Shown piece after piece: positions 11,867-23,766 of a stretch of DNA of 64,000 nt; within the stretch, counting starts at the first letter, position 1; every line of letters starts with the position of its first letter. The notes below the pieces were generated by a model. That model made no database searches and was not told the origin of the DNA. It saw only the letters and a list, made by a program, of their open reading frames with translations. The stretch covers positions 192,001-256,000 of the forward strand of contig CAVYHV010000006.1 of assembly GCA_963768425.1 (NCBI GenBank), written 5' to 3'. The stretch is from Candidatus Bathyarchaeota archaeon (GTDB lineage Archaea; Thermoproteota; Bathyarchaeia; Bathyarchaeales; Bathycorpusculaceae). The translations under genes and the position numbers were made by a program.

Positions 11867-14663
11867 ATGGGAACATTAAATCTTGATAGTATTTTCAACC
11901 CTAAAAGTGTAGCTATTGTCGGAGCCAGTGACGCTGAAGGCTCAGTAGGCTACGCGATTGTAAAAAATTTTACTAAAATGGGGTTCGCAGGCAAAGTTTA
12001 CTTTGTCAACATTCGAAAGCCAGAGATTTTAGGTGTTAAAACTTTCAAGTCAGTCGATCAGATTCCGGAACCTGTCGACCTAGTTATGATTGCCACACCT
12101 GCCAAAACCGTTCCTGACGTCATGGAGGAATGTGGACGGGCAAATGTGAAAGGCGTAATCATAGTGTCTGCGGGCTTTAAGGAAACAGGTGCTGATGGGA
12201 AAGCTTTAGAAGATAGGATTCGTCAAATCGCCAAAAAATATGGAATCCGAGTTGTAGGACCAAACTGCATCGGCGTGCTTCGTCCCAAAAATAATCTTAA
12301 CGCCACTTTTTTGGATAAAATGCCTAAAGCAGGCAATGTTGCTTTTCTTTCTCAAAGCGGAGCTTTAGGCTCAGCAGTTCTTGACTGGGCAATCCATGAA
12401 AACATCGGTTTTAGCAACTTCGTTTCCGTCGGCTCCATGGTAGACGTGGACTTCGGTGACCTGATAGATTATTTCGGTTCCGACCCAAAAACCAAAAGCA
12501 TATTGATGTACGTAGAAGGCATAACGGATGCACGCAAATTCATGAGTGCAGCAAGACACTTTGCAAGAGCCAAACCAATAATTGTAGTCAAATCTGGCAA
12601 ATTCGCTGAAAGCGCAATGGCCGCAGCTTCTCATACGGGTTCGCTCTCAGGAGAAGATGGCATTTACGATGCTGCTTTCAAACGTGCAGGCATTGTAAGA
12701 GTCAGTGAAATCGCAGATTTATTTAACTCCGCGGAAGTCTTAGGATCGCAACCCCTACCCAAAGGTCCGAAATTAGCAATAATCACTAACGCAGGTGGAC
12801 CAGGCGTAATGGCGACGGACGCTTTAATTGCTTATAGCGGCAAGTTAGCGAGTCTAAGCCAGAAATCGCTGGATGCTCTCAACGGCGTGCTGCCTCCTTT
12901 CTGGAGCAAAGGCAACCCAATCGACGTTTTGGGTGACGCGAAAGCTGACCGTTACAAAGCTGCTCTTCAAGCTTGCCTCAACGATGAAAACATCGATGGA
13001 ATCTTGATTATTTTCACTCAGCAAGCAGTGTCAGAAGCAATAGAAATTTCCAAAAACATAGTTGATCTTGTACGCAACAAAACTAACCAAGACAAAACAA
13101 TCTTAACCTCGTTTATGGGTTTTGGCCCAGTTCAAGAAGCCAACAACATCCTAAACGCAAACAACATCCCAACATACTCAACTCCTGAACAAGCAATCAA
13201 AACATACATGTACATGTACGAGTACCAACGCAACAAAGAACTCCTATACGAAACCCCTGAAGAGTTACCCTACGACGATTCACCCCCAAAACGCCCCATA
13301 ATGGTCATACTACGGAATGCTGCATTTGAAGGCCGAGACGTCTTAACTGAAGACGAAGCAAAAAAAATACTCAAATACTATGATTTCCCCATCGTAACAA
13401 CAGAAGCCGCAAACAATGTAGAAGAAGCAGTGCAACTTGCCCAAAACATGGGTTTCCCAGTTGTACTAAAAATTCTCTCCCCCCAAATCCTCCACAAAAC
13501 AGACGCCGGCGGAGTAATTCTAAACATCAACACTCCAAACAAAGTTCGAGAAGCTTTCGAAACTCTAATCCAAAGAGCAACAGCCTACAACCCAAACGCG
13601 CAGATAATCGGTGTTACCGTTCAACCCATGGTTGAGAAAAAAGGCCAGGAAATCATAATCGGCGGAAAAACCGATCCAGTCTTCGGCCCAGTAATACTAT
13701 TCGGTATGGGCGGTGTCGGTGTAGAGCTTTTCAAAGATTACTCAATTGGGATTCCACCATTAAATACAACTCTGATTCACCGCATGATGGAAGACACAAA
13801 CATTTACCAACTGCTCAAAGGATACCGAGGTTCAGCTCCCGTTGATCTTAAAAAACTCGATGAAACCATGCTGCAATTCTCGCAGTTGCTTGTTGATTTC
13901 CCACAAATAAAAGAAATTGACATCAACCCACTCTTAATCAACGAGAAAGAAGCATGCATTCTTGACGCCCGCATCGTAATTGACAAAGATGCAGTTTGCC
14001 GCAAATTTGAGTTACACGAACACATGATTATTAGCCCTTACCCAAAAAAATACGAAACAATTTGGCGCCTAAAAAGCACACAAGAAGTACTGCTGCGCCC
14101 CATAAAGCCAGAAGACGAACCCATGTGGCTTGAAATGTTCCAAAGCTTCTCAGAAGAATCCATACGATACAGATTCTTCCAAATGCTAAAAGACACTCCA
14201 CGTGAAGTTCGAGTCCGCTACTGCAACATCGATTATGACAGAGAAATCGCAATTGTCGCTGAAATGGTTGAAGAACGGAAAAAGAAAAATCCTCGGTGTA
14301 AGCCGCGTCATCATTGAGACTGATGGAAAAAGCAGTGAAATGGCCTTCATCGTAAGCGACTACTGGCAGGGACTAGGTTTAGGAACTAAAATGGTTGACT
14401 ACGCGCTTGACATCGCAAAAGAAAAAGGCGTCGAAAGCGTCTACGCAATAATGCTGCAAGACAACTACAGAGCTTTGAGCTTGACAAAGAAAATGGGCTT
14501 TAACCTTGAATACTTAAGCGACGGAACAGTCAAAGCATCACTTAACTTAAAAAACGAAGACATAGATTCACGATGCCTAATAACAAATGTACCTGAACCA
14601 CTTCAAGAACAAACAAAGCAACCAAAAACCGCGAAAACAGAAGAAAAGACCGCTCCGGCGTAA
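11867..14663 (+). CDS. Bifunctional acetate-CoA ligase (ADP-forming) family protein / GNAT acetyltransferase (Pat-like), frameshifted near 14275
   Basis: CoA-binding domain, GPNCIG, SQSGA, SHTGSL, ATP-grasp HKTDAGGV; GNAT WQGLGLG motif in ORF 14202..14663. Confidence 0.9.
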
Positions 14664-14675
14664 TCGATAAGGTAC
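14417..14675 (+). repeat. Left copy of ~250-bp direct repeat (3' end of the Pat-like gene)
   Basis: Near-identical to 20751-21010. Confidence 0.9.
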
Positions 14676-15571: not shown

Positions 15572-16681
15572 TTAGATTTTCACTTTGCAAATTTCGTATA
15601 CAATCAAATGCGGATACTTCAAGTAAAACCTATACAAATGAGGATTTTCTTTTTCAAACTCAACACTTGGATCAGGCTCATAAATCCTACAAATAGCCAA
15701 ACCATTCTCACTAAGAGCGCTCGTCATTTCATCAAGGGTAAACCAATGATGCGGATTGTCTTTAACCTTGAACTCTATTTTGTAGTTAGGTAAACGTCCA
15801 TGAAAGCGTCCGTTGCTCGAGGAAGTTATGCCTTTTGCAAGTTGACCAAAAAACGGATGCGCCTCAATAATAAAAAATCTACCCTGATCAGCCAGAATTC
15901 TACTGATTTGGCTTAAAGCTTCGGAGAATTCCTTGTGGTTATGTGTTTTTCTGCAATAGTCAAAACTCACAATTGTATCTATAGCCACAATATAGTCAAA
16001 GTATTTGGAATGCACGTTTTTTGCAAAATCAAGAAAATCCCACTGAAAAAACTCTTCGTTATCAAGGTCTAGTCTTTTTTTGAGTTCGTTTGCTTTTTCA
16101 ATTAGAAATGCGCTTCGGTCAATACCGGTCACGTGTGCTCCAAGTTTAGCCAGAATCGTGGAATAATATCCTGGTCCGCATCCAAAGTCAAAGATCTTTT
16201 TTCCTGCAATTTTCTCTTTCGTAAAGAATTGTGCAACAAAATTTTCTACGCAATATTTGTAGTAGGTTCGGCTTTCAGGTCTTATGTCTGAAACGTCATC
16301 GTAAAATTTCTTTTTAAACCATTTTTCCATAATTCCCTGCTGATCATCATGTTCCTTCAAAGCTTGAGGAATTGCTGTTTTCATTGCTTTGTTGACAGCT
16401 GAAACCAACATCTCTTCGACGTTTTGCATGGACCCGTTTGAACAATCATTGCCTATGATTTTTTCGCCAAATGCAGAGTTTAACCATTCTTTGTATTCAG
16501 GCAACGTTTTTTCTAAGACTTCATGGATTGTTGACTGCAGTTTTGCATAAATTTCTGGATCCAATTGTTCAAAAAGCTGAACTTTTTCCGAAGGCGCATT
16601 CAGGTGTTGATTTTGCTTTTTGGCTATTGCAGGCTTTTTAGAGAGGGTTTTAGTTGTTGGTTTATTTTTTGGCAAAAACAA
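15572..16681 (-). CDS. Class I SAM-dependent methyltransferase with N-terminal precursor-homologous domain
   Basis: IFDFGCGPG motif I, VTGIDRS, FDYIVA; residues ~1-112 align with the precursor at 18480..18938. Confidence 0.85.
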   Translation of the reverse strand: MFLPKNKPTTKTLSKKPAIAKKQNQHLNAPSEKVQLFEQLDPEIYAKLQSTIHEVLEKTLPEYKEWLNSAFGEKIIGNDCSNGSMQNVEEMLVSAVNKAMKTAIPQALKEHDDQQGIMEKWFKKKFYDDVSDIRPESRTYYKYCVENFVAQFFTKEKIAGKKIFDFGCGPGYYSTILAKLGAHVTGIDRSAFLIEKANELKKRLDLDNEEFFQWDFLDFAKNVHSKYFDYIVAIDTIVSFDYCRKTHNHKEFSEALSQISRILADQGRFFIIEAHPFFGQLAKGITSSSNGRFHGRLPNYKIEFKVKDNPHHWFTLDEMTSALSENGLAICRIYEPDPSVEFEKENPHLYRFYLKYPHLIVYEICKVKI

Positions 16682-16776
16682 TCGCTGCTCTATTTATGAT
16701 CTCTCAAGATAATATTTATGGGTTTAGTGGTTCAAAATAAAGACATAGCTGAGGCATTTTCTTGAAAGTAAATTTG

Positions 16777-18366
16777 TTAATAATATGGAACGATTATTTT
16801 TAAGGGATAATTTCTTTTTGAGCTTGACGTTTTTCCCATGCTTAAGCGGTTCCAAACCGAACGGAGATTTTCATATCGTTGGCTATCGGGCAAAGGCGAA
16901 TAAAAATAACTATAATTATTTCCTGTTTTTTCTTTGCTCAGCTCTATTCCATATTCTTGCGGGTTATGAGAAATTTCTGAATCAGGCAAAACCCCAAAAC
17001 GTGAAATGCTGACTTGATCAATAAATTCTTGGTTTTGCTCTAAGAAAGCAACGGATTGTTCAAAATCTCTCTGAGTTTCCCCTGGAAAATCTACTATCAT
17101 AAATGTCAAAACGCGAATGCCATTCTTTGCAGTATCGCGGATCACGTTTTTAGCAGTTTCTATGTCATACCCTTTTTTCATCTTACTCAGAATTCTCTGG
17201 GACCCAGATTCTATGCCAAACCACAACCCGATACAACCCGCCTGCCGAATTTTCCCAAGCAATTTGTCGTTCATTTCAGAACGAACTCTGGCCATACCCA
17301 TCCACTGCATTCCGATATTTTCTTCAATCAATAAATCGCAGAGTTTCTCCAAAGATTTGATGTTACAATTTATCAAGCTGTCATTGAAGCGAATGGTGGA
17401 AACTCCATATTTTTCTTTGATATGCTTGAATTCCGATACTATGTTTTCTGGTGACCGCATCCGATACGTGTTGCCCCATAGACGTTTTTCAACACAAAAA
17501 ACACAATCACCAACACAACCTCTAGAGCCCACAACCGGCATTATAGGCATCCCGAACTTGTTTTGAGGATATTCCTCCAAGGGCAAATTATCGTAGTCGG
17601 GAAAAGGCAAATCGTCAAGAGATTTAATTAATGGTCGATCGACGTTAGAGATAATTTTGCCCCTCTCATTTCTGAAGGAAACTCCATCGATTCCCTTTAT
17701 TGAATCTAAACTTCCGCCATAGAAATTAGCTATGTCAGCGATTGTGGACTCGCCCTCCCCTCGAACTGTTACGTCAATTTCTGGGTTGGCAGACAGAACT
17801 TCTTCCCATGAAGCGAATGCCGGACCCCCCAAAACTGTCAAAATTCTCGGTTGAATTTTCTTTAATTTACGTGCGAGAAGTATGCTCCACATCAATCCCG
17901 TATGAGTTATTACATGAAATCCCACAACACTTTGACCTTTGGGATCGTTGGCTATCTCCATAAACCATTCATTACAAATTTTCCAAACATCCGACAGTGT
18001 CGTCTGTTTTGATTCTTCGCTGATAATATCTTTGGACGTTGAATTTGAATATGTATAACCTAATTGATCAGAAGCCTCTTTCAGCATTATTTCTTCAAAA
18101 ATTTTTTGGGCATTTTGAATGGTTGAATAAATTTCTGTGTCAGGAACCTTTTTCCATTTCGCCCCTCTCTTGATGCCGCTTTTTCTTAAAATTTCTCCAG
18201 GTTTGATTTCGAGTCCTTGATGGAAAAGAGTTAAGTTAAAAGCTTTAATATTCAGATCAAACGTGCTTACCTTTTGATTATTTGCATTTAAGGTGCTTGT
18301 CAAGTATGGAATTGCGGGATAAGGAACTAAGGAAGAAACTGGAGGGATGCAAAGAAAAACAGGCAA
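16777..18366 (-). CDS. Cobalamin-dependent (class B) radical SAM enzyme, probable RiPP C-methyltransferase
   Basis: B12-binding region (VLGGP, VRGEGE), SRGCVGDCVFC CxxxCxxC, FGIESGSQRILSKMKK, FPGET. Confidence 0.88.
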   Translation of the reverse strand: MPVFLCIPPVSSLVPYPAIPYLTSTLNANNQKVSTFDLNIKAFNLTLFHQGLEIKPGEILRKSGIKRGAKWKKVPDTEIYSTIQNAQKIFEEIMLKEASDQLGYTYSNSTSKDIISEESKQTTLSDVWKICNEWFMEIANDPKGQSVVGFHVITHTGLMWSILLARKLKKIQPRILTVLGGPAFASWEEVLSANPEIDVTVRGEGESTIADIANFYGGSLDSIKGIDGVSFRNERGKIISNVDRPLIKSLDDLPFPDYDNLPLEEYPQNKFGMPIMPVVGSRGCVGDCVFCVEKRLWGNTYRMRSPENIVSEFKHIKEKYGVSTIRFNDSLINCNIKSLEKLCDLLIEENIGMQWMGMARVRSEMNDKLLGKIRQAGCIGLWFGIESGSQRILSKMKKGYDIETAKNVIRDTAKNGIRVLTFMIVDFPGETQRDFEQSVAFLEQNQEFIDQVSISRFGVLPDSEISHNPQEYGIELSKEKTGNNYSYFYSPLPDSQRYENLRSVWNRLSMGKTSSSKRNYPLKIIVPYY

Positions 18367-18479
18367 TTTAGATCATCTTAACTGTTTATACCCATTGGTT
18401 TTATGGTAGCTACTACTTTATGGCGTAAATCGGAGAACTATTTTTCAGTTGATGGCGTTGGTTTCTGAACCGAAGCTTC

Positions 18480-18938
18480 TTATTTGAACTGATCTTTCAA
18501 AGCTTGACGAATTGCTCCCATCATAGCCTCATTGACAGCATTAACAACCATATCGTCCATTTTTCTATTTGGTGTAGGGCAGTCGTTACCACATGAGCTA
18601 CACAAAGGTGTTGGACAGTCGTTTCCACATGAACTACAAAGCGGCGTCGGGCAATCGTTACCACATGAACTACACAAAGGTGTAGGGCAATCATCAGCTG
18701 CTATCAAAGAAGCATCAACCCACTGCAGATATTCTGGCAAAGTTTTTGCAACGGTATCACGAATTGTTGACTGCAGTTTTGCATACATTTTAGGATCCAG
18801 TTTTTCCACAGGTGGCATTTTTGCCAAGAGTTTCGTTAAACGTTTCTTTTGTGCTGGAGTCAGTTTTTTTGCTGATGGAGCGGTAGTTGGTTTTTTTGAG
18901 GAAGCTTTAGGTGTAGATTTATTTTTTGACAAAAACAA
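18480..18938 (-). CDS. Putative multicore RiPP precursor: leader + (DCPTPLCSSCGN)x3 + DCPTP + follower
   Basis: Cys-rich perfect 12-aa repeats between two helical segments; lies between two radical SAM genes. Confidence 0.8.
   Translation of the reverse strand: MFLSKNKSTPKASSKKPTTAPSAKKLTPAQKKRLTKLLAKMPPVEKLDPKMYAKLQSTIRDTVAKTLPEYLQWVDASLIAADDCPTPLCSSCGNDCPTPLCSSCGNDCPTPLCSSCGNDCPTPNRKMDDMVVNAVNEAMMGAIRQALKDQFK
18571..18692 (-). repeat. 36-bp coding tandem repeat x3.4 with only synonymous differences
   Basis: Units differ at GAT/GAC, TGC/TGT, CCT/CCG/CCA, ACA/ACG, TTG/CTT, AGT/AGC and GGT/GGA. Confidence 0.95.
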
Positions 18939-19020: not shown

Positions 19021-20438
19021 TCAACTTTTGGTTTTTGCATTTTTGTTTTTTTGAGATTCCAACAGGAAATTGTACGAAATTAGGAGCTTTAGTATTTCAT
19101 TTTGAAAAGTGCAAAAGTAGTCTTCTTTTATGCCAAGTTGCCCCGTTTTAACATAGATATCGTAAGCGCATCCTCCGCCGCAAATTCCAATCGCAGCACA
19201 TCTCATACAGTCTTTATTCTTTAGTGTCCCCATTTCCAGCCATTTATAAAACACGGGTTCTTCTTGAACTTTCAAATCATCTTTAATTGGAATTTGATAT
19301 TTTCCCGACGGATAAAACGCGTGGCAAGGACCCACTGTTCCAGTTGGCGAAAAAAATAGTAGTTGACCAAAAGCTGGGCAATCGTAAAGGTGGAATATTT
19401 CTTTGAAAAAATAATTTGCACGCCGATTATCAATGCGATCTTCAAACATGTGCAATTCTTTTGCTTTTAAGTAGGCCCCAAAAAGATGATGAGCAAGCTC
19501 TTTGGGGTCTGGAACTTCAAATTCGCTTGGCTCTTTAAGTCTGGTCAACAAGTTGAAGCCTATGGTTCTGACGCCTAATTTCTGGATAAATTCTATTATT
19601 TCTTCTGTGTGCTCATAGTTCTGTTTCGTAATGGTGCATGATATTCCTGTGTTTACACCCGCCTCTTTTAGAAGCGCCAACGCTTTGAGTGCTGAGTAAA
19701 AGGTTTCTTTTCCATCGGTGAAAACACGGTTTTTGTCAATGTTAGCCCACCCGTCAAGCGACAACCCCACGGTAACGTTGTGTTGTTTAAGTTTCTTAGC
19801 TATGTTTTCGGTTATTAGGCTTCCATTTGTTACGCAGGAAAACAAGAATTTACCTTAGAAGCCGCCTCAAGCTTCTCCATGATATAGAATACAATTTCAC
19901 TATTGCTAAACGGCTCTCCCCCATAAAAAGTGACCCTGTATTCTGGAACCTGTTTTGCCTCGTTGACAAGAACATTTATGACTTTATCAGCCAAATCCTT
20001 AGACATCACTGCACTTGGGCCTTTTAGAGAGTTTTCTATAAAACAGTAACCGCACCTGAAATTGCAGAAGTCGGTAACCAAAATGTAGGCAAGATTGGTT
20101 TGTGGTTTTTTTCTAAGCAGACTGGTTGCAAGAGTTTCAAAAACTTTTTCCTCATTAAAGCCTTGAGGAACCAAAAATTTTAGTTCCATTAACTCTTTAA
20201 TGTCCTTGCCATGCTCGCCCTCACTTAGATCTGCCAAAACCTTTTCGTACTTTTTGTTGGTTAAGTACACTTTCTTTAGAGTTAAAGAATTGAAAAGACA
20301 CTTCGTTGATTCATCAATATCAAACAAGTGGACAAACGGCGAAAGAACCCCTTGAGCAAGCTCTTCACGGAGCACTCGCTCAGAAGACTGGTTTTTATTC
20401 ACAATCACATTAACCGCCTTAGATTGTTTCTTGCTCAT
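19021..20438 (-). CDS. Radical SAM/SPASM peptide maturase with N-terminal RRE-like domain; frameshift near 19850
   Basis: CNFRCGYC, FYGGEP, TNGSL, SLDG; SPASM motif CPAFG...GPC...CMRCAAIGICGGGC...FC; split across ORFs 19830..20438 and 19021..19845. Confidence 0.9.
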
Positions 20439-20750
20439 TTACCCACCCAAAAAGAAAACCATCTTAAATGTCCCTAAATTAACAAATTATTAAAATCTTT
20501 CCTAAATCCCATTGACGACCATTTTCGATGTACAGGATAAACCTTTTGTGTTTTTCCATTACTTAATTGTGAAAAATAATGGTGCACCCTTGGTTACCCT
20601 TCTTTCTATTTGGCTGTTTCGAATCTGGCTGCTTCAATTTGAACCGGTCCTCAAAAAGACAACGAAACTATACAGTTAAGTTATCGAGATTATCAAAAGT
20701 AGACTTGTTTGCTCTAAAACAGGGCACAATTTATATTGAGTTGAATAATA

Positions 20751-21010
20751 AAAAGAAAAGGCGTCGAAAGCGTCTACGCAATAATGCTGCAAGACAATTA
20801 CAGAGAGCTTTAAGCTTGACAAAGAAAATGGGCTTCAACCTTGAATACTTAAGCGACGGAACAGTCAAAGCATCACTTAACCTAAAAAACAAAGACATAG
20901 ATTCACGATACCTAATAACAAATGTACCTGAACCACTTCAAGAACAAACAAAGCAACCAAAAACCGCGAACACAGAAGAAAAGACCAGTCCGACCTAAAC
21001 AAAAAGGTAC
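20751..21010 (+). repeat. Right copy of ~250-bp direct repeat (orphan duplicate of the Pat-like gene 3' end)
   Basis: Matches 14417-14675; encodes the same KKMGFNLEYLSDGTVKASLNLKN...EEKT tail. Confidence 0.9.
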
Positions 21011-21408: not shown

Positions 21409-21849
21409 TCAAATTTCGAACGAAAACGTTTGGTCATTAAAAAAATGGGCTCTAATTGAAAGCTCACTTAGGATTCGCTCTAAAACCGCCTCTCTATTCT
21501 CGAGCTCGTGTTCCCATATTCGCATAACAATCCACCCTTTATTTTCAAGGCGTAATGTTGTTTCTATATCTCTTAATTTGTTCTTATTCAATTTAGGAAT
21601 CCAATACTCTTTGTTACTTTTAGGTAAATGCCCGTGGATTGGACAGCGGTGCCAGAAGCAACCATCAACGAAAATTGCTATCTTTCTTTTAGGAAACGCA
21701 ATGTCTATTTTTTCTTTGCCATATTGGATACTGAACCTAAACCCCTTTGCCCACAATGCCCTTCTCAAAGCAACTTCAGGCGTTGTGTTTTTGGAACGTA
21801 TGGCAGACATTATTTTTGAACGCTTTTCTTTAGAAATTGTGTCTACCAT
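21409..21849 (-). CDS. vsr: Very short patch repair endonuclease
   Basis: DTISKEKRSKIMSAIRSKNTTPE, FVDGCFWH and RIWEHE motifs; start MVDT at 21849. Confidence 0.93.
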   Translation of the reverse strand: MVDTISKEKRSKIMSAIRSKNTTPEVALRRALWAKGFRFSIQYGKEKIDIAFPKRKIAIFVDGCFWHRCPIHGHLPKSNKEYWIPKLNKNKLRDIETTLRLENKGWIVMRIWEHELENREAVLERILSELSIRAHFFNDQTFSFEI

Positions 21850-21891
21850 AATTCTCAAACGTTTTATATTACTTCCAAACAATATTAGCGT

Positions 21892-22749
21892 ATGTGCCCC
21901 AACATACTAACAACAATAAAAAGTATTTCAGAATTCAGAAATAACGATCTCAAAAATTACTTCGCAACTTACCCTATCCGCATAAATCAAGTTGGGCAAC
22001 AATTGGAGTTTTACGTCAAAGATGCTATATGTGGCTCTTTCAAGTCTAACAAGACCGAAGACCTAGCTCACACTAAAGGGGTCTTTTCCTACTTAGGTAA
22101 TCAAAACAACCCTCCTGACCTCATTATTGCCAATGGTGACGCCTACGAGATAAAGAAAATCGAGAACCTCAAGGCTTCTCTTGCACTTAATAATTCCCCA
22201 CCAAAAGACCAACTTCATAGAGATGACCCAAGGATTACTCAATATTGCCGAGATTGTGACGGAGGCAATTGGAAAAGCAAGGAAATTTTTTATACTGTGG
22301 GGTGTGCTGAAAAAACTAAACTAAAGCATCTGTTCTTCATACATGGTCGTTGCTACGCCGCAGACAAAGAAATTTATGAAAACAAAGCAACCCAATTGAA
22401 AGAAGGCATCGACATTTTTTTCAAGTCAAAGGGATGGGAGACCACCAAAACAAAGGAATTGGGTCGAATAAATAAAATGGACCCTCTTGGCATTACAAAT
22501 TTTAGGATTCGCGGTATGTGGGAGATAGAAAATCCACTTAAGGTTTTTTCGTACTTATACAAGTTCGATGAACGGAAGAGTTTTTCGTTAGCCGCTCTTA
22601 TGACGAAAGAGAAATACGGTTCTTTCCCAAAAGAAGATAAAATGGCATTGGAAAATGATGACAAAATTACCTCAAAGACAGTAATTGTCAGGAACCCCAA
22701 TAATCCTGCTCAAGACGTGGAAGCTCAGCTTATTACCTCATGGTGGTAA
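21892..22749 (+). CDS. Type II restriction endonuclease, NgoPII-like (probably GGCC)
   Basis: FSYLGNQNNPPD...AYEIKK and DPLGITNFRIRGMW motifs; adjacent to a C5 methyltransferase. Confidence 0.8.
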   Translation: MCPNILTTIKSISEFRNNDLKNYFATYPIRINQVGQQLEFYVKDAICGSFKSNKTEDLAHTKGVFSYLGNQNNPPDLIIANGDAYEIKKIENLKASLALNNSPPKDQLHRDDPRITQYCRDCDGGNWKSKEIFYTVGCAEKTKLKHLFFIHGRCYAADKEIYENKATQLKEGIDIFFKSKGWETTKTKELGRINKMDPLGITNFRIRGMWEIENPLKVFSYLYKFDERKSFSLAALMTKEKYGSFPKEDKMALENDDKITSKTVIVRNPNNPAQDVEAQLITSWW

Positions 22750-22761
22750 ACGCTGGAAATA

Positions 22762-23766
22762 GTGTCTCTCTTTTCAGGTTGCGGTGGGTTAGACCTTGGA
22801 TTTACGAATACTGGTTTCGAGTTAGTCTATGCAAATGACAATGACCCAATAGTCTGGGAGACTTTTGAAAAGAACCACAAAATAGCTATTGACAAGCGTT
22901 CTTTGTTTGAGATTAAATCCTCTGAAATACCTGATGCAGATGGAATAATTGGTGGTCCTCCTTGCCAAAGTTGGAGCCTTGCAGGAAAGATGCGTGGCGC
23001 AAAGGATGAAAGAGGACAGCTATTTTATGAGTACGTTAGAGTGCTGAAGGATAAGCGACCCAAGTTTTTCCTTGCTGAGAATGTCCCAGGAATTGTTTCC
23101 AGGACACATCTTCCGGAGTTTAAGAATATCTTAAGGAGGTTTTCTTCGCTGGGTTATGAAGTCTCCTTTGGGCTAGTTGATGCCCGAAATTATGGTGTTC
23201 CCCAAGACCGTAAAAGAGTGTTCATGATCGGTTTTAAAAAAAGTCTCAAGTGCCGATTTAAATTTCCTGAGCAAACACATTCAGAACTTGGCGGAAAGAC
23301 CCTCGATGGCAAGAAAACTTTCAAATGGTTGACATTGAAAGATGCTATTGGAGACCTTCCTGAACCCATTCGGGCTCTTGATAAGAACAAGGCTAACGGC
23401 AATCTAGCTATCCCTAATCATGAGTATATGAACGGAAGCTTTTCATCCATGTATATGTCTAGAAATAGACGAAGAACTTGGGACGAGCCTTCCTTTACAA
23501 TCCAAGCTGGCGGAAGGCATGCACCTTTACATCCAGGTTCCGCTAAGATGACAAAAGTTGAGACTGATCTGTGGAAGTTTGAGGGAGATAGTCCTCAATT
23601 CAGGCGTTTGTCAGTAAGAGAAGTTGCGAGAATTCAGACATTCCCAGATGATTTCAGGTTTTATTACACGAATATTGCAGATGCCTACAAGATGATTGGG
23701 AATGCGGTTCCGGTTAAGTTGGCAGAAGTTCTAGCGAAAAAGATCTCTGAAGACCTTAGTGTCTAA
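22762..23766 (+). CDS. DNA (cytosine-5) methyltransferase, M.HaeIII-like
   Basis: LFSGCGG, GGPPCQ, ENV, QDRKR and IGNAVP motifs; target recognition region MSRNRRRTWDEPSFTIQAGGRHAPLHP resembles GGCC enzymes. Confidence 0.92.
   Translation: MSLFSGCGGLDLGFTNTGFELVYANDNDPIVWETFEKNHKIAIDKRSLFEIKSSEIPDADGIIGGPPCQSWSLAGKMRGAKDERGQLFYEYVRVLKDKRPKFFLAENVPGIVSRTHLPEFKNILRRFSSLGYEVSFGLVDARNYGVPQDRKRVFMIGFKKSLKCRFKFPEQTHSELGGKTLDGKKTFKWLTLKDAIGDLPEPIRALDKNKANGNLAIPNHEYMNGSFSSMYMSRNRRRTWDEPSFTIQAGGRHAPLHPGSAKMTKVETDLWKFEGDSPQFRRLSVREVARIQTFPDDFRFYYTNIADAYKMIGNAVPVKLAEVLAKKISEDLSV

Follow-up and report, generated by a model that had tools for sequence, protein, structure and literature searches.

Within a 64,000-nt stretch of a Candidatus Bathyarchaeota archaeon genome (contig CAVYHV010000006.1, positions 192,001 to 256,000; hereafter, the window), a small cluster encodes a putative Cys-repeat precursor of a peptide that is made by the ribosome and modified after translation (RiPP), a radical S-adenosylmethionine (SAM) maturase of the SPASM type, a B12-binding radical SAM enzyme and a class I SAM methyltransferase (Table 1). 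The first 112 residues of the methyltransferase (the N-domain) are a paralog of the precursor that has been depleted of its core. Comparison of the sequences shows that the fused piece is a duplicated precursor gene, including the upstream element and start region of that gene, placed in frame with a class I SAM methyltransferase. We regard the fusion as genuine, derived, conserved and devoid of a core, and hold this to be almost certain. As for its function, the reading we prefer, to which we give a little less than an even chance, is that the N-domain acts as a leader-mimic docking module, that is, as an adaptor rather than as a substrate.

The precursor-like domain and the reality of the fusion

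A preliminary description of this locus, made from its letters alone, had placed the precursor, B12 radical SAM and methyltransferase open reading frames (ORFs) on the minus strand and had proposed that the methyltransferase begins with a precursor copy. Both the positions and the homology were confirmed. BLASTP aligned precursor residues 1-150 with methyltransferase residues 1-111 (E = 9e-22, 38% identity), pairing the tail, leader and follower of the two proteins and placing the gap exactly at the Cys repeats of the core. At the DNA level, a 23-nt string quoted in the preliminary description is found at 16527-16549 and again at 18763-18785, and nowhere else (0 expected from 100 shuffles), two further repeats of 96 nt (76%) and 75 nt (72%) connect the precursor and methyltransferase genes, and the similarity reaches approximately 25 nt upstream of both TTG starts. 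In an alignment of precursors and N-domains, F2 and L3 of the N-terminal FLxKNK motif are invariant and K5, N6 and K7 are conserved in at least 90% of sequences. When 16 precursors are compared with 42 methyltransferase N-domains, 23 positions have a residue in common that reaches 80% or more in each set; 11 of them fall in the contiguous block EKLDPxxYAKLQS (precursor residues 45-57), and the others include P68, Y70 and W73. The precursor matched no Pfam or NCBIfam family and methyltransferase residues 1-112 matched none in Pfam, while a profile search of the PDB with the N-domain/precursor alignment returned one chance-level match only (E = 0.28) and a protein atlas held no usable match for residues 1-115.

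The remainder of the protein is a class I SAM methyltransferase, with families of this class covering residues ~147-330 above their Pfam cut-offs. The highest-scoring is Methyltransf_31 (69.8 bits against a cut-off of 27, residues 160-275), and Methyltransf_23 (52), Methyltransf_25 (47.2), Methyltransf_12 (46) and Methyltransf_11 (45.6) also exceed theirs. The top NCBIfam match was BchM/ChlM, at 61.1 bits against a cut-off of 158.9, and all 25 families listed scored below their own cut-offs. A fold search likewise returned generic class I methyltransferases only; CypM and BamL, which are peptide N-methyltransferases, were two of many. The borosin-type alpha-N-methyltransferase fold is distinct from the class I fold, and the exclusive matching of class I families bears out the earlier expectation that this enzyme differs in fold from borosin methyltransferases. 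The sequence of the loop between the two conserved parts, GEKIIGNDCSNGS, had been quoted correctly, but the proposal that a single GNDC was kept as a core unit does not hold: the precursor unit reads C-G-N-D and the methyltransferase I-G-N-D-C, so that the C-x-x-D pattern is already broken in the window copy.

AlphaFold2 models of the two proteins are consistent with a shared helical organization. In the methyltransferase (mean pLDDT, the per-residue confidence score, 71.8; N-domain ~55-75), residues 1-38 are disordered, a helix spanning residues 42-71 is followed by a low-confidence loop, and a second helix (residues 85-125) runs into the Rossmann domain. The precursor model (pLDDT ~60-72; pTM, the global confidence score, 0.27) contains helices at residues 28-40, 49-81 and 125-151, with the core (residues 81-125) unstructured at pLDDT <50. 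The preliminary description had envisaged leader and follower as a helical scaffold with the core as an expandable loop. Of this picture, the models support the helices, and the number of core repeats does vary among precursors (~2 to 4 units), but they do not show a packed hairpin. A complex prediction for methyltransferase residues 39-369 and precursor residues 40-152, supplied as alignments and run without controls, gave a score of 0.02 (mark, 0.32) and has no bearing either way.

An assembly or sequencing error joining two genes would account for the fusion trivially, and a suspicious frame change does occur in the SPASM maturase gene of the same cluster. The junction was checked in contigs assembled from other public runs (X1, X2 and X3) belonging to three studies. 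Codon 112 is crossed with 0 gaps by contigs from X1 (16174-16563), X3 (16235-16578) and X2 (16263-16413), and no indel was listed between 16174 and 16681 in the compared contigs. The X2 contig is identical to the window and may derive from its source sample, whereas those from X1 and X3 differ from it by 5-7% and are therefore independent. The frame is also open in homologous loci: 17 intact fused copies, full length and without a stop, are present in 14 of the 120 species genomes of the genus. Together, the gap-free bridging contigs and the open frames make an artefact scarcely conceivable.

The methyltransferase gene was found in 20 of these 120 genomes, with intact orthologs (63-87% identity) in 13 genomes of the genus besides that of the window. 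Breaks or splits affect seven of the 24 copies known from the genus (G029, the second one in G001, G113, G124, G132, G120 and G106). In G106 (G106:C19:218870-220040), the N-domain (an open frame of 145 residues) and the catalytic part (303 residues) lie in different frames; the locus is a pseudogene or else a naturally split version. All 20 of 20 genomes bearing the methyltransferase also contain one or more free precursor genes, and two more genomes harbor only a divergent precursor. Marker genes were also examined: mcrA was not found at 91% completeness (two controls positive), a Pfam search for amoA gave no match, in the control genomes either, and a TFIIB-type factor scoring above cut-off in L028, which belongs to a genome of the genus, supports an archaeal host. 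In a large protein collection, 93 clusters match the methyltransferase, and a leader motif precedes the catalytic domain in at least 46 of the 92 that were examined (P0001-P0092). Fusion extends to homologs of 61-63% identity (P0046). Homologs lacking the fusion, which the preliminary description had named as a refutation, do exist, but only at 48-61% identity, and the four contigs of such homologs that were examined all have an unfused cassette; they mark the fusion as derived, not as spurious.

Selection on the N-domain and its possible role

The ratio of nonsynonymous to synonymous substitution rates (dN/dS), computed pairwise among six species orthologs, is 0.12 for the catalytic domain and 0.36 for the whole N-domain, within which the leader helix (residues 41-76) stands at 0.18, the tail at 0.29 and the loop at 0.31. 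The leader helix, with its EKLDPxxYAKLQS block, and the N-terminal motif are thus kept under purifying selection. Nine tail residues are missing in the P0028 clade and the loop in the P0046 clade, and both helices are retained in each. The core remnant, meanwhile, has decayed. Of 46 fused homologs, 21 contain a Cys there and 2 a C-x-x-D/Q pattern, no remnant Cys is found in 3 of the 6 species orthologs compared, and the P0032 clade keeps ADDC…CPTP, which corresponds to both ends of the core with all repeats gone. The preliminary description had allowed that the enzyme might itself be modified; in such a borosin-like case the remnant loop would be crosslinked or methylated. The GNDC of the window copy and the residual ADDC…CPTP of deeper clades could be taken in its favor, but the scarcity of Cys and of C-x-x-D/Q, together with the outright deletion of the loop in P0046, makes self-modification unlikely, and we rate it as very improbable.

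What the methyltransferase has kept is the part that a leader reader would see, and what it has lost is the part that becomes modified; it is on this ground that we read the N-domain as a putative adaptor. The domain would display the recognition sequence of the substrate to a leader-reading protein, for which the top candidate is the N-terminal region (~115 residues) of the SPASM maturase, and the methyltransferase would in this way be tethered to the maturase-precursor complex, coupling methylation of the Cys/Asp-rich core to its crosslinking. The maturase is the best candidate because no other partner occurs in all of the intact clusters seen; the B12 enzyme is missing from L028 and broken in L025, L026 and L029. 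Conservation of EKLDPxxYAKLQS covers all faces of the predicted helix, a pattern more in keeping with a bound recognition motif than with a single packing face. The Crp cluster of Methanococcus voltae offers a possible parallel for a shared leader-like N-terminus. In its report (PMC13692751), the first 47 residues of CrpA are read as leader-like, the sequence predicted to be recognized by the RiPP recognition element (RRE) of the maturase falls within residues 1-5, and another protein encoded in the cluster shares the N-terminus of CrpA.

Several observations weigh against such a docking role. No RRE family was detected in the maturase: Pfam gave no PqqD-type match at E <= 0.01, ~118 residues lie before the radical SAM domain, and the alignment with the solved structure CteB begins only at residue 84. 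A leader mimic would also compete with the substrate for one site unless the maturase were oligomeric or had two sites. Unfused homologs function without such a domain, in the case of L121 without any N-terminal extension. In addition, the follower (residues 90-112) evolves almost neutrally (dN/dS 0.70), which, taken with the seven broken copies among 24, indicates that selection on the N-domain is weaker than on the enzyme. Finally, dS among the window gene and its L024-L028 orthologs is 0.34 in the N-domain versus 0.66 in the catalytic domain, hinting at a nucleotide-level constraint that possibly inflates the apparent conservation of the protein; either a constraint acting on the RNA or gene conversion in the past could underlie the low dS.

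The helices themselves invite another explanation, in which leader and follower of the N-domain pair with those of the precursor, for instance as a four-helix bundle that would hold the core loop near the active site. Both proteins are predicted to adopt a helix-loop-helix arrangement with the core as the loop, the predicted continuity of the follower with the first catalytic helix would fix the geometry, and the two share the hydrophobic and aromatic positions Y52, L55, L67, Y70 and W73 as well as the small residues A134, A146 and L147. We nevertheless regard such pairing as unlikely, since the follower is poorly constrained in the methyltransferase (the dN/dS of 0.70 noted above), the tertiary packing of the precursor is modeled without confidence (pTM 0.27) and the contiguous conservation of EKLDPxxYAKLQS does not resemble that of a single helix face.

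A further explanation dispenses with a role for the protein domain. A 24-nt AT-rich element upstream of the methyltransferase is unique in the window genome, allowing up to 3 mismatches, and recurs as exact copies in L026 (7832-7855), L027 (9109-9132 and 9688-9711), L028 (7218-7241), L029 (8566-8589 and 9145-9168), L124 and L125. In several species it is identical ahead of methyltransferase genes and of second precursor genes, and it is better conserved than the coding sequence that follows it. The element may be an archaeal promoter or a signal in the 5' untranslated region common to enzyme and substrate genes. Through the duplication, the methyltransferase could then have gained the promoter-like element, 5' region and start codon of a precursor gene, and with them co-regulation, leaving the N-domain as a largely tolerated passenger. 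The element and the low dS of the N-domain lend weight to this explanation, which is further favored by the inclusion of the start region in the similarity, by the conservation of 74% of third-codon positions across paralogs, with YAKLQS codons almost invariant, and by the decay of the loop and the near neutrality of the follower. Set against this, the frame of all 112 codons is intact in 17 of 24 copies and also in clades at 61-63% identity, the leader helix retains a dN/dS of 0.18, and the clades that lost tail residues (P0028) or the loop (P0046) kept both helices. On balance, we deem expression-signal capture unlikely, to the same degree as helix pairing.

The N-domain might alternatively bind its own catalytic domain, either activating it on leader-free core or inhibiting it until displaced by the precursor. 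Its N-terminal position and the retention of the recognition block are compatible with a leader acting in cis, and engineered fusions of leader and cyclodehydratase are constitutively active on leaderless substrates (PMC9052802). Methyltransferases of the same family, however, work without a leader-like part in other lineages, and the catalytic domain, for which the fold search gave generic class I matches only, revealed no element that would bind a leader. We see a rather slim chance for this arrangement. Docking by leader mimicry, helix pairing, action in cis and capture of expression signals are not mutually exclusive.

Origin of the fusion and relation to known systems

Homologs of the methyltransferase at 48-61% identity lack the precursor-like domain. 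In the four metagenome contigs examined (L114, L117, L119 and L121), they form the last gene of a cassette that also encodes a Cys-rich tandem-repeat protein and a SPASM maturase (506-543 residues). Their N-terminus is a short unrelated extension, or none at all in L121. The presence of this unfused three-gene cassette makes the fusion look derived. The two arrangements share an orthologous methyltransferase (with an identity of 52-63% when compared with the unfused query and of 48-61% when compared with the enzyme in the window), a maturase whose top family is TIGR04136 and Cys/Asp-rich tandem-repeat substrates, whereas the cassettes differ in lacking the precursor-like domain and in using other leaders and other repeat units. 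Their precursors (L114 5760-6344; L121 5843-6373) are built from units of the type CACAPPVD or DCDCYCPCS, with a leader motif of the type L-x-KVAG-x-I, and contain Cys and Asp in every unit, as do the archaeal cores.

With an unfused homolog as query, 0 of 400 other genomes of the phylum gave a match at E <= 1e-40, and among the matches listed from a contig scan with generic methyltransferase motifs, 80 loci were all distant methyltransferases (23-53% identity over parts of the protein). A leader/follower profile run against 1.84 billion representative proteins recovered 18 proteins, mostly precursors or fragments, including one fused methyltransferase (P0017) and one protein of 1,089 residues that matched the repeat part only (E = 1.5e-4). 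No other fusion partner was therefore seen among them.

Phylogenetic inference placed 13 sampled N-domains in one split (support 94/97) and nine type-A precursors of the same clusters in a separate group (support 100/99), a topology that fits a single old fusion. Concerted evolution, or ongoing gene conversion with the co-resident precursor, was considered and rejected, since the N-domains form a group of their own. The N-domain shares with a second class of precursors, type B (L031, P0093-P0095, P0098), an 'FGEKI' insertion and an 'EKT…KEW' variant, which points to a type-B precursor as its source. Second precursor genes lie directly upstream of the methyltransferase in L027 and L029, and a precursor gene lies immediately upstream of it in L028 and L123, arrangements that illustrate how the fusion could happen. 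The order of events proposed in the preliminary description, duplication followed by fusion, gains support from these neighboring genes, from the 5' flank similarity and from the single N-domain split.

Type-B precursors (P0093, P0095, P0098) have a long extra C-terminal helix. Orphan or type-B precursor loci were observed in L031 (7233-7736), L032 (7667-8098), G108 and G114, with the orphan genes far from any maturase gene, and two genomes contain such a precursor only, without the methyltransferase.

Among known systems, borosins of types I-III (OphMA-type) are the closest in layout, combining a methyltransferase and a precursor-derived sequence in one polypeptide; in them the core is fused and the enzyme is self-methylating (PMC11285071). 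The window enzyme resembles them in uniting a RiPP methyltransferase and a precursor-derived sequence on one chain. It differs in that the core has been lost and only leader and follower remain, in an N-terminal position, in that the methyltransferase is of the class I Rossmann type and in that a free precursor gene is always present. A core in cis, as in borosins, is thus lacking from nearly all fused homologs, 2 of 46 of which retain C-x-x-D/Q.

Leaders attached to the N-terminus of a modifying enzyme are also known from the laboratory constructs LynD-F and MicD-F and from lantibiotic synthetase fusions (PMC9052802). These place the leader on the enzyme rather than on the substrate, as in the methyltransferase, but the enzymes used there possess a site that binds the leader, and the constructs are meant to circumvent the leader. 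The fusion described here, by contrast, is natural, involves a tailoring methyltransferase, includes the follower and coexists with leader-bearing precursors. The Crp cluster (CrpA, CrpB, CrpC; PMC13692751) is similar in combining an archaeal SPASM enzyme with a Cys-rich repeat protein bearing C-X-X-Q/D motifs, and in encoding two proteins with almost identical N-terminal 47 residues. There, however, CrpB is another Cys-repeat protein rather than an enzyme, and the maturase of the present cluster, in its intact L024 form, scores far below the CrpC cut-off (TIGR04463, 98.2 versus 525 bits).

Our literature search, from which supplements were excluded, found no account of this family, nor of a natural tailoring enzyme carrying a core-less copy of leader and follower beside free precursors. 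Precursor-enzyme fusions are known from borosins and leader-enzyme fusions as laboratory constructs; a core-less natural fusion is new in the searched literature. We offer as a tentative and somewhat doubtful proposal that this is a natural case of the leader placed on the enzyme, in which a tailoring enzyme would have gained pathway specificity through a core-less copy of the substrate gene and would serve as a pseudo-substrate subunit, either of the machinery that reads leaders or of a bundle formed by precursor hairpins.

How RiPP tailoring enzymes find their substrates is often unclear, because many of them have no recognizable leader-binding domain. If the proposal were correct, duplication of a precursor gene followed by fusion would represent a general route for recruiting leader-independent tailoring enzymes into RiPP complexes, and that duplication would in addition link the enzyme to the precursor promoter. 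Engineers fuse leaders to enzymes for control, and a comparable arrangement seems to have arisen here in nature and to have been retained in many species. Unfused orthologs elsewhere, broken copies within the genus and loop-less clades that retain the helices constitute natural controls, which make this a directly testable model of substrate recruitment, and the domain may yield a portable docking tag for a family of Cys/Asp-rich, presumably crosslinked peptides in soil archaea.

Cluster genes and flanking DNA

Table 1. Features of the methyltransferase cluster and its flanks (window coordinates).
Feature	Position	Strand	Remarks
Direct repeat, left copy	14417..14675	plus	~260 nt; 3' end of CoA-ligase/acetyltransferase gene; families D1, D5
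Fused methyltransferase gene	15572..16681	minus	369 residues, TTG start; precursor-like N-domain + class I SAM methyltransferase; ORF
N-domain (residues 1-112)	16346..16681	minus	core-depleted precursor paralog
Follower helix (residues 85-112)	16346..16429	minus	predicted continuous with first catalytic-domain helix
Core remnant (residues 72-84)	16430..16468	minus	…GEKIIGNDCSN…; low pLDDT at 79-86
Leader helix (residues 42-71)	16469..16558	minus	shared block (E)QLDPEIYAKLQS and LPEYKEW; helix in AlphaFold2 model
Tail (residues 1-38)	16568..16681	minus	Lys-rich, predicted disordered; pLDDT <50; FLxKNK end common with precursors
AT-rich element, 24 nt	16696..16719	minus	begins 38 nt upstream of methyltransferase start
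B12-binding radical SAM enzyme	16777..18366	minus	putative C-methyltransferase; 529 residues; ORF
Cys-repeat precursor	18480..18938	minus	152 residues; Lys-rich tail, leader helices, core of CPTPLCSSCGND units, follower helix
Precursor core	18567..18695	minus	tandem 36-nt (12-residue) units, C-x-x-D in each
Radical SAM/SPASM peptide maturase	19021..20438	minus	two ORFs here: 19830-20438, 19021-19845
Direct repeat, right copy	20750..21010	plus	94-95% identical to left copy; families D1, D5

A repeat search resolved the precursor core as family D2, with 3 copies at 36-nt spacing (18571-18692). Its units are of the CGND type in the window, while in relatives CGND alternates with CSNQ. A repeated Cys-X-X-Asp/Gln substrate motif thus adjoins a maturase gene, as in Cys-rich-repeat SPASM systems. 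For an archaeal Cys-rich protein, a 2026 study (PMC13692751) has tied the C-X-X-Q/D pattern to thioether (ranthionine) crosslinks of radical-SAM origin. From this shared pattern, the product of the cluster is probably a peptide of that kind.

None of the four cluster proteins matched an NCBIfam equivalog. For the B12 enzyme, the Pfam families Radical_SAM (68.6 bits) and B12-binding (34.5 bits) were both above cut-off, and the top NCBIfam matches, ApyD (160.6 against 750) and TIGR03975 (144.2 against 281.85), were below theirs. The maturase, assessed through the intact L024 ortholog, is most like TIGR04136 (194.3 against 400) and PapB (149.2 against 340); these, like the CrpC family, fall below cut-off. 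Among solved structures it is closest to CteB (5wgg), with an alignment spanning maturase residues 84-429.

In the window, the maturase gene is split by a 1-nt frame change near 19846-19853, where DNA alignment revealed one base fewer than in the closest relative, and it forms a single ORF of 471-518 residues in six relatives (L024-L028, L030). A contig from run X4, differing from the window by 2 letters in 219, has one extra base at 19853 that restores the frame, and two X1 contigs also have one extra base near 19853. This makes an assembly error, or else a very recent change, the probable cause of the break.

The two direct repeats enclose 6.3 kb comprising a MazE/PIN pair (Pfam MazE_antitoxin, PIN_3) and the whole peptide cluster. 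The bracketing of the cluster by ~260-nt repeats suggests that this segment arrived as an insertion, and no integrase lies between them. At the left-hand end, an ADP-forming acyl-CoA ligase ORF (11867-14317) overlaps an acetyltransferase-like ORF (14202-14663) in another frame; the two are continuous in L028, and the overlap at 14200-14320 may be a second assembly frame error. The right-hand repeat is adjoined by genes for a Vsr-type mismatch endonuclease, an NgoPII-type restriction endonuclease and a C-5 cytosine methylase (21409-23766).

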